Origin: a virus
Lineage: Duplodnaviria; Caudoviricetes
Direction: 5' to 3' (one strand)
IMG/VR virus record: IMGVR_UViG_3300037515_000482
Location: 1 to 52,924 of that record
Length of the DNA stretch: 52,924 nt
The position numbers were made by a program, and so were the translations under genes. Below are positions 2,197-23,406 of the stretch, piece by piece. Under the pieces are notes generated by a model. That model was not told the origin of the DNA. It saw only the letters and a list, made by a program, of their open reading frames with translations, and ran no database searches. The first letter of the stretch is position 1. Each line of letters starts with the position of its first letter.

Positions 2197-2898
2197 GTGA
2201 GCCACGCCTTCTTGAATGGCGTAACCGCTTCAACTGCGGCCGACTTCATTGTGACACGTTACAGAAAGCACTACAGCATCGAAGAACTGGCCCGCATGAC
2301 CGGTAGGTCGAGAACCTATGTGCGGCGGAGGATCGTCGACGCCGGGATTGCTGTTCGCCTGGCCACACCGACCCGGCGTGTGTCTGTCGATTCTGGGGGC
2401 TACGCCCGCTGGGGGAGCACGAGAGTTCACCGTATCGTCGCGGATGCGTGGTACGGCCCGCCCCCGACCTCACAGCACCACGTGAACCACAAGGACGGGG
2501 ACAAGCTCAACAACCACCCGGACAACCTGGAGTGGGTCACGCCCACGGAGAACTACGTCCACGCCATGCGTCTCGGCCTCGTCAGGTCCCGTTTCTCTAA
2601 TGACCAAGTCAGGGCGATTCGGTATCTGCGCGCGCGCCGCGTCCGGCTGATCGACGTATCCGCTGCCGTTGGGATTCCCGACAGCGGCATTATCAGCAGA
2701 ATCGCCAACCGCGTCTCCTACGCTCACGTGCCCGACGGGGAAGTCCTGGCGTCCGCGTGCTCGTGGTGTGACGCCCCCGCGTCGTTTCTCGACGGACTCT
2801 TGATCGAGAACGGGGCCCGCCTGTCGCACGGCATTTGCAGGTCATGCTCCGAGCGGATGATGGCCGAGATCGAGTCGCACGGGAACGGGACCGCCTGA
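2197..2898 (+). CDS. HNH endonuclease with HTH and zinc-ribbon extensions
   Basis: VHRIVA...VNHKDGDKLNNHPDNLEWVT; C-terminal CSWC...HGICRSC. Confidence 0.85.
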   Translation: MSHAFLNGVTASTAADFIVTRYRKHYSIEELARMTGRSRTYVRRRIVDAGIAVRLATPTRRVSVDSGGYARWGSTRVHRIVADAWYGPPPTSQHHVNHKDGDKLNNHPDNLEWVTPTENYVHAMRLGLVRSRFSNDQVRAIRYLRARRVRLIDVSAAVGIPDSGIISRIANRVSYAHVPDGEVLASACSWCDAPASFLDGLLIENGARLSHGICRSCSERMMAEIESHGNGTA

Positions 2899-2907
2899 CA
2901 AACGAAA

Positions 2908-2943
2908 GGCGCCGACGCGGGAGCCATCCGCAACGTCGGCGCC
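2908..2943. terminator. Intergenic stem-loop (possible terminator or processing site)
   Basis: GGCGCCGACG...CGTCGGCGCC perfect 10-bp inverted repeat; no clear U-tract on + strand. Confidence 0.4.
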
Positions 2944-3009
2944 AGATCGAAAACCAACGAGGAGAAGATACCATCATGGACGAGACGAGAGCAACGACGG
3001 CGCCGGAGC

Positions 3010-3999
3010 ATGAGTAACATCCTGACGGTCTCCCGCCTGCGGACGTGGCGCGACTGCCGCCGAAAGCACCACCTGATGTACGTGGAGGGCTGGCGTCCAG
3101 CCTCCACGCCGGAAGCCATGCGGTTCGGGTCCCTGAGCCACACCGGCCTTGAGGCGTGGTGGAAGGACGACGGCACGGGGCGCCTGGTGGCCGCGATCGA
3201 AGCGGTGGCCGGCCGCGGGTACGACGATTACGAGCAGGTCGCCGCAGAGGAGCTCCTGGCCGGCTACGATAACCGGTGGGGCGCGGACGACCGGTACGAC
3301 GTCATCGCCGTGGAGGCGACCTTCTTCGCGCCGATGCTCAACCCGGACACCGGTGCGCCCTCAAGGACCTGGGTGCTGTCGGGCAAGCTCGACGGTGTGG
3401 TCCGCGACCGGACGACCGGCGCGATCCTCATCCTTGAGCACAAGACGACCACCGAGAACATTGCCGACGACGCCGAGGGTTATTGGACGAAACTCGGCAT
3501 GGACTCCCAGGTCTCCCACTACTACGTCGGCGCCGAAAGCCTCGGTTACGCGGCGGAGGGGTGCCTGTACGACGTGCTCCTGCGGCCTCGGCTGCGGCCC
3601 CTCAAGGCCACGCCCGAAGAGGCCAGGAAGTACACGAAGGACGGGCGCCTCTACGCCAACCAGCGCGACGCCGACGAGACCCCAGAGGAGTATCGGGCCC
3701 GGGTCCGTGCCGACATCACCGAGAACCCGGACAAGTACTTCCAGCGCCGTGAAATCGGTCGCACCCAGCGCGATATCGTGGAGTACCTCGGCGACGTGTG
3801 GGCCGAGGGCCGCATGATGCGCGAGGCCGAGTTGGCCGAGCGGGCGCCCCGGAACCCTGAGAGCTGTCACCGCTTCGGCCGGTGTGCGTTTTGGGATGCC
3901 TGCGCCTACGGCCTCAACCCAGCCGACCATCCCGACGCGTTCGTCCGCCTGGACGACGTCCACCCCGAACTCGATCTCCAAACGAGGGAGAATCTCTGA
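3010..3999 (+). CDS. PD-(D/E)XK exonuclease (RecB/Cas4-like recombination nuclease)
   Basis: N-terminal DCRRK, GKLDGVV...ILEHKTT, QVSHY, C-terminal C..FGRCAFWDAC; adjacent to a Sak4-like ATPase. Confidence 0.85.
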   Translation: MSNILTVSRLRTWRDCRRKHHLMYVEGWRPASTPEAMRFGSLSHTGLEAWWKDDGTGRLVAAIEAVAGRGYDDYEQVAAEELLAGYDNRWGADDRYDVIAVEATFFAPMLNPDTGAPSRTWVLSGKLDGVVRDRTTGAILILEHKTTTENIADDAEGYWTKLGMDSQVSHYYVGAESLGYAAEGCLYDVLLRPRLRPLKATPEEARKYTKDGRLYANQRDADETPEEYRARVRADITENPDKYFQRREIGRTQRDIVEYLGDVWAEGRMMREAELAERAPRNPESCHRFGRCAFWDACAYGLNPADHPDAFVRLDDVHPELDLQTRENL

Positions 4000-20323: not shown

Positions 20324-20890
20324 ATGAGCGAGCCGACGACCTGTGGGGATTTGGGCCACATGACGCGGAAGAAAGGCACGCCGTGCACTCGGCCGATGCT
20401 CGACGGGGGCCCCTGTTTCCAGCACGGAGGCCGGGCAACCGCCGTTGAGACCGTGATCAAGCCGCAGGACTGGGGTAAGGCGGTGTCGGTAGCGTTCTTG
20501 TGGCTGGTGATTGGCACGCAGAAGGGAGCCGCCGAAGCTGCCGGGATCGGTGAGCGCACGATGAATCGCTGGGTGATCTCGCCCTGGTGGCCCGATGCGT
20601 GCGCTGAGGCGAAGCAGCGATGGCTGAGCCACCTGACGCTGGAGTCCATGCGCACCCTGATCCGGAAGGTGAGCGAGGGCGACGCGGACAAGGCCTGGGA
20701 CGTGCTTCAGCAGTTCGACGACGACTTCAGGCCGCGGCCGAAGGAGGTCCGGGTGCTGGGTGTGCTGGCGTTCGTGGAGCAGCTCGCGGACGAGACCGTG
20801 CGCCACATCATGGGCATGCCCGAAGCCGAGCGCCGAGGTGAGCTGGTGAAGCTGGCGCAGGAGTCCGGGGTGGAGCTCGCCGGCCGATGA
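20324..20890 (+). CDS. terS: Terminase small subunit (putative)
   Basis: Directly upstream of TerL; C..TRKKGTPC...C..HGG motif plus HTH (QKGAAEAAGIGERTM..W). Confidence 0.65.
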   Translation: MSEPTTCGDLGHMTRKKGTPCTRPMLDGGPCFQHGGRATAVETVIKPQDWGKAVSVAFLWLVIGTQKGAAEAAGIGERTMNRWVISPWWPDACAEAKQRWLSHLTLESMRTLIRKVSEGDADKAWDVLQQFDDDFRPRPKEVRVLGVLAFVEQLADETVRHIMGMPEAERRGELVKLAQESGVELAGR

Positions 20891-23406
20891 CGTCCGGACC
20901 CGACGACTTGGTGCTTGGCCGGGCGATGCTGGCCCTCGAGGCGCGGGCGGCTGCGCTCGAGGCTCGCGAGACGGCCGAGAAGAGCCGGGTCTCCGTCCTG
21001 GACGGCTGGGACTGGCACGCGTGGCTCGGTGCGATGGTCCCGGGGCTTCGTGGGTTCTCCCCCTTCCACGAGGATTTCTGGAATTTCGTGTGGTCGATTG
21101 ATGCGGAGGGCAGCGCCGACCCGTTCGTCGGTGTGTGGGCGCGCGGCAGCGGGAAGTCGACGTCGGTCGAATCCGCCTCGCTCGCGCTGGGGCTTCGTGG
21201 CATGCGCCGCTACGTCTGGTACGTCCGGTCCACCCAGGACGCCGCGGACGACAGCGTGGGCACGAACATCGCGCACCTGCTCGAGTCGCCCCGGGTCGAG
21301 AAGTACTACCCGTGGCATGCAGAGCGGCAGCTCTCGAAGTATGGCCACTCGAAGGGCTGGAACTCGCAGCGCCTCCGGACCGCGGGCGGGTTCACGGTCG
21401 ATGGGATCGGCCTGGATACGGCGGCTCGCGGCCTGAAGGTCGAGGACCAGCGGCCCGACCTGATCGTCCTGGACGACGTCGACGGGAAGTTCGACACGCC
21501 GCGGACGACGAAGAAGAAACTCGACACCATCACCACCTCGATCCTCCCCGCCGGCTCGGCGAAGACCGTGGTGATCGGGATCCAGAACCTGATCATCCCG
21601 CACGGTGTGTTTTCCCGGCTGGTCGACGGGCGGGCGGATTTCCTGGCCACCCGGAAGGTTTCAGGTCCCGTCCCCGCGGTGCGCGGCCTGAAGACCGAGA
21701 TCCGCGAGGACGAAGAGGCCGGGCGCCGCCGGGCGTTCATCGTCGCCGGCACGCCGACCTGGGAGGGGCAGGACCTGGCCACATGCCAGAAGCTGATCGA
21801 CAACCTGGGCCTCGGGGCGTTCCTGAAGGAGTGCCAGCATGAGGTCCGGAAGAGGGAAGGGGCGCTCTGGACCGACGACATGCTGGCCCACCGCATCGAC
21901 GCCGCCCCTCGGCTCAAGCGAGTAGCCGTCGGCGTCGATCCGTCGGGAGGCGGCGACGCGATCGGGATCGTCGTCGCGGGGCTCGGCTACGATGGGCGCG
22001 GGTACGTGCTGGCCGACCTGACCCAGGACGGAGCGAGGGGCCCGCTCAACTGGGGGAAGGCCGCAGTCCGCTGCTACCTGGACCACGAAGCCGACCGGAT
22101 CGTCGCGGAGAAGAACTTCGGCGGCGACATGGTCGAGTCGAATATCCAGGTTGCGGCCCAAGCGCTCGACGCCGGCCGCGTCCCGGTCACGATGGTCCAC
22201 GCGTCGCGCGGCAAGGACGTGCGCGCCGAGCCCGTGGCCGCGCTCTACGAGAATGGCCTCATCTCCCACGTCGGTACGTTCCCGGAGCTTGAGGCGGAAC
22301 TGACCGGCTGGGTGCCCGGCGACCCGGACTCACCGAACCGGCTGGACGCATGTTTCGTCGCTGGTACGCGGGTCATGACTGGCCAAGGAGAGGTCCCCAT
22401 CGAACAGATTCAAATCGGCGATGCCGTCTGGACTCGCGCGGGCTGGCGTCCCGTTCTGCACTGCGGCCGCACCAGCGCAGAGACTGAGGTGCTCACCGTG
22501 CACCTGTCGGACGGCAGGGCGCTCACAGGTACGGGAAATCACCCGATATGGGTTGAGGGGAAGGGGTGGGCTGCACTTGATACTCTTGTGTGGGGTGACA
22601 TATTACTCTCATGCACAAGAGACGAGATACCATCCAGTTCCAAGGTGTCGTATACACCCGATTCCCTGACTCCCCCCTCCGGTCATCGCGGGTCTATTTC
22701 ATCCCGCCTCGCGGCAGTGGTCGAGAGATGCTCCACCGGGAAGTGTGGAAAGCGCATAACGGGCCGATCCCGCCGGGTGCACACATCCATCATCGGGACA
22801 AAGATCCCCTCAATAACGATCCGGAGAATCTGGAATGCGTTGACCCGGCGACCCATGCGGAGCGCCATGCGGGTGAGCACATCGACGCCCGCCGCGCATG
22901 GGCTGAGCGTATCCGCCCTCTCTCCGCAGAGTGGCACAGCTCACCCGAGGGGGTCGCGTGGCATGCTGAACACGGTAAACGCACTTGGGAGGGTCGAGAG
23001 CCCGACGAGATCACATGCAGCCATTGCGGGAAGCGCGCGAAGCGATTCAAAACGGGCAGTGAAACTCGCTTTTGCAGCCGCAATTGCTCCCGAGCTGCCG
23101 CCGATTCCGAGCGCCGATACGAGCGAGAGACGCCTTGCCCCGTCTGCGAGAAGCTCTTCTGGCAGAACAAGTACCGTCCAAAGCCTGGCGCGTGCTCCCG
23201 TAAGTGTGCTTGGGTTCTCCGAAAGCGAAAAAGCAGCGGTCTACAACCTTGAGGTTGCCGAACACCCTGAGTACTTCGCCAACGGCATCCTTGTGCACAA
23301 CTGCGTCTGGGTGCTGAGCGAGCTGATGCTCGGTTCGGCGCAGAAGATCTTCGACATCTGGTATCCCGGCATGAAGTCCACCGACGCGAAGGAGGGAGTA
23401 GCGTGA
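20887..23406 (+). CDS. terL: Terminase large subunit containing an intein
   Basis: Walker A ARGSGKST, Walker B LIVLDD, nuclease VGVDPS, EKNFGG, NRLDA. Confidence 0.93.
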   Translation: MTSGPDDLVLGRAMLALEARAAALEARETAEKSRVSVLDGWDWHAWLGAMVPGLRGFSPFHEDFWNFVWSIDAEGSADPFVGVWARGSGKSTSVESASLALGLRGMRRYVWYVRSTQDAADDSVGTNIAHLLESPRVEKYYPWHAERQLSKYGHSKGWNSQRLRTAGGFTVDGIGLDTAARGLKVEDQRPDLIVLDDVDGKFDTPRTTKKKLDTITTSILPAGSAKTVVIGIQNLIIPHGVFSRLVDGRADFLATRKVSGPVPAVRGLKTEIREDEEAGRRRAFIVAGTPTWEGQDLATCQKLIDNLGLGAFLKECQHEVRKREGALWTDDMLAHRIDAAPRLKRVAVGVDPSGGGDAIGIVVAGLGYDGRGYVLADLTQDGARGPLNWGKAAVRCYLDHEADRIVAEKNFGGDMVESNIQVAAQALDAGRVPVTMVHASRGKDVRAEPVAALYENGLISHVGTFPELEAELTGWVPGDPDSPNRLDACFVAGTRVMTGQGEVPIEQIQIGDAVWTRAGWRPVLHCGRTSAETEVLTVHLSDGRALTGTGNHPIWVEGKGWAALDTLVWGDILLSCTRDEIPSSSKVSYTPDSLTPPSGHRGSISSRLAAVVERCSTGKCGKRITGRSRRVHTSIIGTKIPSITIRRIWNALTRRPMRSAMRVSTSTPAAHGLSVSALSPQSGTAHPRGSRGMLNTVNALGRVESPTRSHAAIAGSARSDSKRAVKLAFAAAIAPELPPIPSADTSERRLAPSARSSSGRTSTVQSLARAPVSVLGFSESEKAAVYNLEVAEHPEYFANGILVHNCVWVLSELMLGSAQKIFDIWYPGMKSTDAKEGVA
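22577..22604 (+). promoter_or_regulatory. Candidate sigma70-type promoter inside the intein
   Basis: TTGATA-16 bp-CATATT with extended TG, in an AT-rich patch, 6 nt before ATG 22611. Confidence 0.45.
22611..23252 (+). CDS. HNH endonuclease with zinc fingers, nested out of frame within the intein
   Basis: LHREVW..HNGPIP.G.HIHHRDKDPLNNDPENLEC; CSHCG, FCSRNC, CPVC, CSRKC. Confidence 0.88.
   Translation: MHKRRDTIQFQGVVYTRFPDSPLRSSRVYFIPPRGSGREMLHREVWKAHNGPIPPGAHIHHRDKDPLNNDPENLECVDPATHAERHAGEHIDARRAWAERIRPLSAEWHSSPEGVAWHAEHGKRTWEGREPDEITCSHCGKRAKRFKTGSETRFCSRNCSRAAADSERRYERETPCPVCEKLFWQNKYRPKPGACSRKCAWVLRKRKSSGLQP

Follow-up and report, generated by a model that had tools for sequence, protein, structure and literature searches.

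An HNH endonuclease gene nested in the -1 frame of a phage large terminase intein

A nuclease gene within the terL intein

The IMG/VR virus record IMGVR_UViG_3300037515_000482 (Duplodnaviria; Caudoviricetes), analyzed here over its whole length of 52,924 nt (52.9 kb; 68% GC) and hereafter referred to as the window, contains a large terminase gene (terL) that carries an intein. Our analysis indicates that this is very probably a mobile intein of a widespread family, the homing endonuclease of which is encoded separately, by a gene overprinted in the -1 frame between the two splicing regions. The terL open reading frame (ORF), located at positions 20887-23406 of the plus strand, as are all window features described below, runs uninterrupted for 839 codons, intein included, unlike split host genes, and residues 348-473 of its product match the Pfam family Terminase_6C (E=4.2e-11). 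The intein is of the class 1 type, and its 317 residues, from Cys1 to His316-Asn317, are encoded at 22351-23301, as judged from the sequence, the Hint_2 match and a junction table of 72 related loci (see below). The nested gene begins with an ATG at 22611, at offset 2 from the terL start, and ends with a TGA at 23250-23252, encoding 213 aa. An earlier note, prepared from the sequence alone, had placed the intein at 22351-23301 and the nested ORF at 22611-23252, and these coordinates were confirmed.

The nested protein matches Pfam HNH_3 (E=2.9e-15; 56.1 bits, with a cut-off of 24.8), and its HNH catalytic core, residues 40-86 (22728-22868), was delineated from an alignment of 70 sequences (A4), a profile match to I-HmuI (PDB 1u3e) and the AlphaFold2 model. 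Within the core, H60, H61, N69, N73 and H82 are invariant and H86 is nearly invariant across A4; the model, built with 70 sequences and scoring a mean predicted local distance difference test value (pLDDT) of 94.8, includes a predicted beta-beta-alpha element with strands at residues 58-61 and 74-77 and a helix at residues 79-85. Further downstream are two Cys4 zinc-ribbon modules (23016-23207; C136/C139/C155/C159 and C176/C179/C195/C199), the cysteines of which are invariant or nearly invariant both in A4 and in a six-sequence alignment (A1); these ribbons are presumed to bind DNA, and this part of the protein shows weak Foldseek similarity to YacG/FCS-type zinc fingers. The nearest solved relative by sequence is I-HmuI, which matches over the HNH core (profile E=0.0037) and, as an HNH homing (nicking) enzyme, is encoded by a group I intron of a Bacillus phage, whereas the window nuclease is nested in an intein; the C-terminal part of 1u3e has no match in the nested protein, which carries the two zinc ribbons instead. 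Thus, the proposal of the earlier note that the -1 frame encodes a complete HNH and zinc-finger protein with its own ATG and stop codon is borne out by the HNH_3 match and the two ribbons.

The terL frame itself retains the splicing determinants. The intein extends from Cys1 (TGT, 22351-22353) to Asn317 (AAC, 23299-23301) and is followed by a +1 Cys codon at 23302-23304; the N-extein ends with ...SPNRLDA and the C-extein starts with CVWVLSEL, which places the insertion after NRLDA in the terminase nuclease-domain motif, as had been proposed for what was described as the catalytic NRLDA. In an alignment of 58 sequences (A5), Cys1, the N-terminal nucleophile, is nearly invariant, H64 of block B (T61-G-N-H64) is invariant and T61 nearly so, and V297 and N317 are invariant, with the intein ending in ...ILVHN before the +1 Cys (23296-23304). 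Pfam searches of the terL frame yielded Hint_2 (38.3 bits against a cut-off of 28.4) and Intein_splicing, the latter below its cut-off (29.5 against 35.8 bits) and split across intein residues 35-317, and matched no nuclease family. Both the open stretch of 317 codons with intact splicing residues (Cys1, T61/H64, His316-Asn317 and the +1 Cys) and the lack of a nuclease in the intein's own frame, as claimed earlier, were thereby corroborated.

Modeling of the terL-frame intein with AlphaFold2 and 58 sequences separated three parts, residues 1-95 and 281-318 scoring pLDDT values above 94 and residues 97-280 values of 41-52. The N-terminal splicing region (residues 1-95; 22351-22635), which includes block B (T61-x-x-H64), is predicted to consist of beta strands (pLDDT 94-98), and the C-terminal splicing region with blocks F and G (VYNLEV...ANGILVHN; 23191-23301) is predicted at similar confidence (pLDDT 94-96). 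Between them lies a linker of approximately residues 97-280 (22639-23190) that is free of stop codons, unconserved and predicted to be disordered, with no secondary structure. The terL-frame product is thus predicted to be a beta-rich Hint fold broken by a disordered loop of about 185 residues, and the presence of the catalytic residues, along with the predicted fold, suggests that the terL precursor undergoes protein splicing.

All 642 nt of the nested ORF lie within the intein, and therefore the dual coding, put at about 640 nt in the earlier note, is real; even the TGA at 23250-23252 consists of bases of the Leu-Glu codons in intein block F. A further TGA at 22596-22598 closes the HNH frame four codons (12 nt) ahead of the ATG. 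This upstream stop, the purifying selection and the distinct fold of the nuclease, and the unconserved and disordered terL-frame translation support the conclusion that the nuclease is a separate gene and not an in-frame intein domain. The HNH protein presumably nicks or cuts intein-less terL in a site-specific manner.

Related loci, insertion sites and mobility

In a tblastn search of GenBank phages with the nested protein, the best full-length matches fell within genes annotated as terL in Tetrasphaera phage TJE1, Acinetobacter phage Highwayman and Clostridium phage phiCDHM19, each time at offset 2 of a terL ORF that runs without interruption and has intein ends. The family has cultured members. 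A blastn search of the phage collection with the intein DNA returned no match, and the family is visible at the protein level only. In GenBank entries HQ225832, OZ038341 and LK985322 (L003, L004 and L005), the deposited annotation is one long terL coding sequence, with the intein and the nested HNH gene unannotated; gene callers annotate the long terL ORF alone in TJE1, Highwayman and phiCDHM19, so that nested nucleases go unannotated.

A motif-seeded scan of IMG/VR with alignment A1 identified at least 484 relatives, of which the best 80 were kept and, together with the window and five other loci, make up 86 classified loci; ranking by similarity to the nested query biases these 80 toward nested forms, and several of the 86 are near-duplicates, and the distinct start contexts number 60. 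The HNH gene is nested in a long ORF at 72 of the 86 loci, invariably in the -1 frame (that is, the host frame is the +1 frame of the HNH gene), and is free-standing at the remaining 14; none of the 72 nested loci shows another offset or an HNH frame that runs on into the splicing regions. The host-frame ORFs of these 72 loci matched Intein_splicing (66 loci), Hint_2 (61 loci) and terminase nuclease domains (up to 33 loci), and none matched an HNH family in Pfam. Species-representative genome and metagenome-assembled genome (MAG) contigs, which include the isolate genome of Glycomyces amatae as well as a contig (L180) duplicating an IMG/VR locus (L079), provided 28 loci with substantial matches, 22 of them nested in the -1 frame, one nested in the +1 frame and five arranged otherwise. 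Overall, 95 of the 114 classified loci are nested, 94 of the 95 in the -1 frame, over a GC span of 29-70%. Together, the relatives of the nuclease encoded on at least 484 IMG/VR stretches and the nesting at 95 of the 114 classified loci suggest that the arrangement is common in terminase genes.

The sole departure from the frame rule is locus L196 (542-3073), on a Peribacteria MAG contig, where a shorter HNH homolog with one zinc ribbon is encoded in the +1 frame within an open ORF that contains an intein. Four nested members (L173, L186, L189 and L190) were found on contigs binned as Methanomethylophilaceae, Woesearchaeota, Methanosarcinales and an unclassified archaeon, and, going by these MAG binning labels, the family may extend to archaeal viruses.

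The intein differs in composition from its host gene, with 61% GC and a GC content at third codon positions (GC3) of 0.65, compared to 69% and 0.90, respectively, for the surrounding terL gene (20887-22350) and a GC3 of 0.89 for the portal gene, and the borders of this compositional island coincide sharply with those of the intein. Among 80 loci encoding TerL relatives, the first 31 (L090-L120; 45-67% identity) were examined for an intein, and all 31 proved to be intein-less, with the site reading ...DA-L-VW...; no HNH homolog was found within about 2.5 kb at any of the 80 loci. Because its GC3 is below that of the extein and it is absent from the 31 examined relatives, the intein looks like a recently acquired selfish element. 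In the 72-locus table (A3), related inteins occupy three neighboring points of the terminase motif D(H)xxDAxRY, namely ...DH|CxDAxRY, ...DHx|CDAxRY, and ...DA|CRY or ...DA|CVW, the +1 Cys replacing a different motif position each time; at most junctions, H-N or S-N precedes C or S, and those of the window, NRLDA|C...HN|CVW, are common to two other loci (L010 and L028).

Free-standing homologs were mostly found between an intein-less terL gene and the portal gene (L020, L022, L029, L042 and L059) or upstream of the small terminase gene terS (directly upstream in Acinetobacter phage BP10). Because such homologs adjoin intein-less terL genes, invasion of a mini-intein by a free-standing HNH gene is plausible. 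In an HNH tree (FastTree, unrooted), the free-standing forms are scattered, with eight state changes, at least two of which are forced by well-supported branches.

Several related loci have unusual layouts. At L009 (2367-3329), the C-terminal half of a free-standing ORF matches the WH..EG..WH helix and zinc-ribbon module of the nested proteins, and the N-terminus appears GIY-YIG-like by eye, which suggests a swap of nuclease domains on a shared DNA-binding module. At L054 (902-3301), the terL frame is closed by a stop at 2617 and is open again from 2939, where it encodes the intein C-terminal block and the C-extein, and the HNH ORF (2527-3150) is intact; this locus would be either a natural split-intein ("fractured gene") form or a broken gene. 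In L068 and L070 (1420-3715), an intact intein-less terL gene is followed by an HNH gene, a relic intein C-terminal block and a second C-extein start (...VIAHN|CLDATHYLV), which looks like a nuclease gene that moved along with part of its former intein and flank.

Selection, reading frame and initiation

For 2542 pairs on the HNH codon alignment, the HNH frame had a mean pairwise identity of 0.42, compared to 0.21 for the terL frame and 0.205 for the third frame, a reading filled with stop codons that served as the non-coding comparison; conservation of the HNH frame among homologs, a check proposed in the earlier note, was therefore found. Across the same pairs, the differences per site at HNH codon positions 1, 2 and 3 amounted to 0.46, 0.42 and 0.66, and the close pair L048/L052 differed at 19, 15 and 57 such positions, respectively. 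The codon-like GC pattern of the window overlap likewise sits in the HNH frame, and internal stops are absent from the nested HNH ORFs of all 72 loci. These patterns are indicative of protein-level purifying selection in the HNH frame only. Given that identity in the terL frame is about that in the stop-filled third frame, the terL-frame peptide of the overlap is not conserved as a protein.

To evaluate the openness of the host frame, each HNH gene was synonymously recoded 3000 times under two codon-usage tables. In AT-rich relatives, the host frame remained stop-free in only a few recodings (5-8 of 3000 for Highwayman, 0-6 for phiCDHM19 and 24-89 for L007). Since an open host frame is so rare among these recoded relatives, avoidance of stops in the host frame is selected across the family. 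The other alternative frame contains 10-33 observed stops in all five recoded loci and was stop-free in none of the 3000 recodings, except for 24 of the 3000 for the window under extein codon usage. The nearly uniform -1 layout, shared by 94 of the 95 nested loci, is thus attributable to the intrinsic paucity of stops in the +1 frame of the HNH gene and their abundance in the other frame, and, as far as these sequence statistics indicate, the gene is tolerable only where the host reads its +1 frame. Both the recoding tests and the stop-poor +1 frame support the earlier proposal that the nested gene is tolerated because the host frame stays free of stops.

Past the upstream stop, 56 of the 72 nested loci have ATG as their first start codon, nine have GTG and six have TTG, with none in the remaining locus; near the 5' end, canonical slippery heptamers were found in only six of the 72. 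Given the in-frame stop upstream, the retention of the ATG in 56 of the 72 loci and the scarcity of slippery heptamers, we infer that the nuclease is produced by independent initiation at ATG 22611 and not by frameshifting. A consensus scan of the window uncovered a candidate sigma-70-type promoter at 22577-22604 (TTGATA, a 16-nt spacer and TGa-CATATT; one site versus 0.2 expected). The candidate -10 element ends 6 nt upstream of the HNH ATG, and the TGA at 22596-22598 doubles as the upstream stop; with this geometry, transcription would start from approximately the A of the ATG, yielding a leaderless HNH mRNA. The -10 element makes use of the terL-frame codons ATA-TTA; elsewhere, in the extein and the portal gene, ATA accounts for 1 of 36 Ile codons and TTA for 0 of 109 Leu codons.

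Comparison of the 60 distinct nested start contexts with 6372 control ATGs of the same loci showed enrichment of promoter-like elements at the nested starts. A -10-like hexamer ending 5-8 nt before the start is present in 26 of the 60 contexts (at exactly 6 nt in 24 of the 26) versus 6.2% of controls, and a TG-extended -10 in 11 of the 60 versus 0.3%; full -35/-10 pairs accompany 15 of the 60 nested starts but only 48 of the 6372 controls, and a perfect TATAAT within 40 nt was found for 13 of the 60 and 53 of the 6372. Shine-Dalgarno-like sites precede 21 of the 60 nested starts, compared to 13% of controls. The promoter-like site hints that expression of the nuclease may be uncoupled from that of the terminase.

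Alternative explanations and known systems

Under the proposed mechanism, ribosomes translating terL would read through the overlap and produce the disordered loop of about 185 residues, and the two halves of the Hint domain would fold around this loop, splice and restore the terminase nuclease motif. The 213-aa protein, in which a helical linker follows an I-HmuI-like HNH core and precedes two zinc ribbons, would arise from independent initiation at ATG 22611. In the window and about one quarter of its relatives, this would probably take place on a leaderless mRNA whose promoter lies in the final codons of the N-terminal splicing region, and in others after a Shine-Dalgarno site. In co-infections, the nuclease would presumably cut or nick intein-less terL (...NRLDA-L-VWVL...), and the intein would be copied in together with the nuclease gene. 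Selection on the overlap acts on the HNH protein and, in the terL frame, on freedom from stops alone.

Three alternatives would deny the nested ORF the status of a separate functional gene. Two compensating indels could have displaced an ordinary in-frame HNH domain, the window being a single metagenome-derived record in which the 3' junction (about 23220-23260) is covered by one contig alone (X1), possibly from the record's own source sample. This possibility, raised in the earlier note, is effectively refuted: the identical out-of-frame layout recurs in 72 phage and IMG/VR loci as well as in 23 genome contigs, which come from many studies and vary in GC content; the HNH frame possesses an upstream stop and an ATG of its own; and contigs of two other studies reproduce the 5' transition (22503-22870) without indels, one (X2) covering 22566-22716 and 22719-22869 with no differences and the other (X3) 22503-22653 and 22720-22870 with two differences each. 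A search of longer homologs (374-2000 aa) for an HNH domain fused in frame found none, although this is weak evidence. It is highly improbable that programmed -1 ribosomal frameshifting from terL, without independent initiation, produces an N-extein/Hint-N/HNH fusion or a slip back. The -1 relation in 94 of the 95 nested loci is indeed the usual direction of programmed shifts in phages, but stop-codon statistics account for this bias, so that frameshifting is not needed to explain the shared frame; the HNH frame of the window is closed 12 nt before the ATG, where no X XXY YYZ heptamer is present, and the rarity of canonical heptamers in the family and the ATG kept at the start of homology in 56 of the 72 loci point the same way. 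The homing cycle predicts decay of the nuclease once an element is fixed, and the weak ribosome-binding site in the window would suit a decaying relic, in effect a mini-intein with a long junk linker from which no nuclease is made. Such decay is very unlikely considering the excess of third-position differences and the doubled amino acid identity in the HNH frame, the invariant catalytic His and Asn residues and the eight invariant or nearly invariant zinc-ribbon cysteines among 70 sequences, the lack of internal stops in all 72 loci, the pLDDT of 94.8 and the compositionally recent arrival of an intein absent from all 31 examined relatives.

A fourth alternative accepts the gene and reassigns its role: the HNH protein could be a packaging partner of the terminase, like those encoded beside the terminase genes of cos phages, its location in terL ensuring co-inheritance. 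HNH genes are commonly found beside cos sites and terminase genes (PMC3592412, as far as its available text describes), and the free-standing homologs upstream of terS in BP10 and between terL and the portal gene at five loci occupy similar places. We nevertheless assign little probability to this role because no homolog lies within about 2.5 kb at any of the 80 intein-less terL relatives, which implies that this TerL clade works without one, and because the protein belongs to HNH_3, with an intron homing enzyme as its closest solved relative, is sporadically distributed and has a foreign composition. The apparent GIY-YIG-type N-terminus on the same C-terminal module at L009 would be a swap typical of modular homing enzymes.

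Several observations weigh against the homing-intein interpretation or parts of it. At the structural level, the top Foldseek match of the HNH protein, 1u3e, is weak (E=0.22; TM-score 0.22-0.26), and no match to the PDB was obtained at E<=0.001. For the window alone, the openness of the terL frame is unremarkable, as it was stop-free in 693-1046 of the 3000 recodings (23-35%). With regard to initiation, the Shine-Dalgarno-like GGGGTGA of the window is about 15 nt from the ATG, too distant to serve well in ribosome binding; the bases of the candidate promoter coincide with a conserved peptide motif of the Hint domain, L-D-x-L-x-Y/W-G-D-I; owing to common descent within the family, the promoter enrichment does not tally independent events; use of the rare ATA-TTA codons could simply reflect the foreign composition of the intein; and none of the RNA runs searched for the window region contained the sequence. 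As for origin and role, the unrooted tree is compatible with escape of the nuclease gene as well as with invasion of a mini-intein, and the invariable location of the free-standing homologs beside terminase genes also fits a packaging-related function.

HNH_3 nucleases and the endonuclease VII-like nucleases mentioned below presumably both belong to the His-Me finger superfamily. The premise of the earlier note that intein nucleases are normally in-frame domains needs correction, because out-of-frame cases are already in print; comparisons with the papers discussed here refer to the parts of their texts that are available. Gosselin, Arsenault and Gogarten (bioRxiv 2025) described actinophage inteins, many of them in terL, with nucleases in another frame or on the other strand, including an "endonuclease VII-like" nuclease (IPR004211) in reading frame 3, and proposed that free-standing nuclease genes invading inteins are the origin, which is what the earlier note had inferred for the window. 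The two arrangements have in common a nuclease ORF that lies between the splicing blocks on the same strand and reads in frame 3, equivalent to -1, with terL among the host genes, as well as an open host frame whose translation in the nuclease region is predicted to be unstructured (pLDDT 41-52 in the window). They differ in the nuclease: that of the window matches only HNH_3 in Pfam, with no Endonuclease_7 match at E<=0.1, and has two C-terminal zinc ribbons, the nucleases of Gosselin et al. being compared by description, and HNH nucleases are reported there as in-frame domains only, in contrast to the out-of-frame HNH of the window. Their survey, according to the available text, drew on PhagesDB alone, and the main text mentions neither TJE1 nor Tetrasphaera, although the supplementary lists may hold family members under another label. 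A tblastn search with the intein N-terminal region did not pick out their phages of the endonuclease VII type (Angelicase, Affeca, Keitabear, Sedona).

Phillips et al. (bioRxiv 2026) reported an out-of-frame nuclease in a cyanobacterial dnaX intein, which resembles that of the window in being encoded in an overlapping frame under purifying selection, in its sporadic distribution and in the proposal that a mini-intein was secondarily invaded; there, the host gene is a cellular one, and here it is a phage terL, and the arrangement, called a rarity by these authors, contrasts with at least 94 nested loci in the present terL family. For Synechocystis dnaX, Gosselin et al., who likewise regard the kind as rare, described an antisense LAGLIDADG nuclease. 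A hidden out-of-frame HNH is also known from the ShiLan-type insertion in the methylase gene of a mycobacteriophage (Arsenault et al., Genes 2025, PMC11855218), where the HNH ORF is likewise overprinted in another frame of an open host frame, but the insertion lacks a splicing domain and is presumably kept as a loop in the mature protein, whereas the overlap in the window is flanked by intact Hint blocks; leaderless initiation was suggested there as the expression route, with no promoter named in the available text. In the fractured genes of Dassa et al. (2009, PMC2677866), free-standing nuclease genes lie between the halves of split inteins, so that a separately encoded nuclease between N- and C-terminal splicing parts is shared with the window, but the window intein is one continuous ORF; the split-like relative in our set is L054, with stops within the overlap. 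Searches for literature joining "intein" with TJE1, phiCDHM19 or phiCD119 gave none among the matches listed, and a search combining intein, leaderless, homing endonuclease and internal promoter returned PMC11855218 as the sole relevant match.

The window intein thus joins a kind already in print, with a different nuclease family, and constitutes no new category. In the available text of the literature compared, no counterpart was found for the stop-codon account of the -1 frame, the quantitative evidence of selection for nothing but host-frame openness or the leaderless-promoter candidate. Out-of-frame intein nucleases of this kind bear on the idea of "splicing first, nuclease invades later" and on the maintenance of overlapping genes. 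More tentatively, and with the balance against it, the nuclease of this large family, which is spread over phages of many bacterial phyla and is never an intein domain in the loci sampled, could be a -1 gene with its promoter in the Hint codons (L-D ... G-D-I), such that overprinting adaptively times or limits nuclease expression. If so, host RNA polymerase would make the nuclease early, while a co-infecting intein-less genome is still cuttable and repairable, the late terL message would carry only a harmless loop, and overprinting would be more than a frozen accident of invasion.

Elsewhere in the window, a second HNH-type ORF is located at 2176-2898; it is free-standing, encodes 240 aa and includes the motif HHVNHKDGDKLNN. 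Its product shows weak similarity to the core of the nested nuclease (E=1.7e-7, residues 37-82), and the window phage appears to carry at least two HNH_3-like genes.

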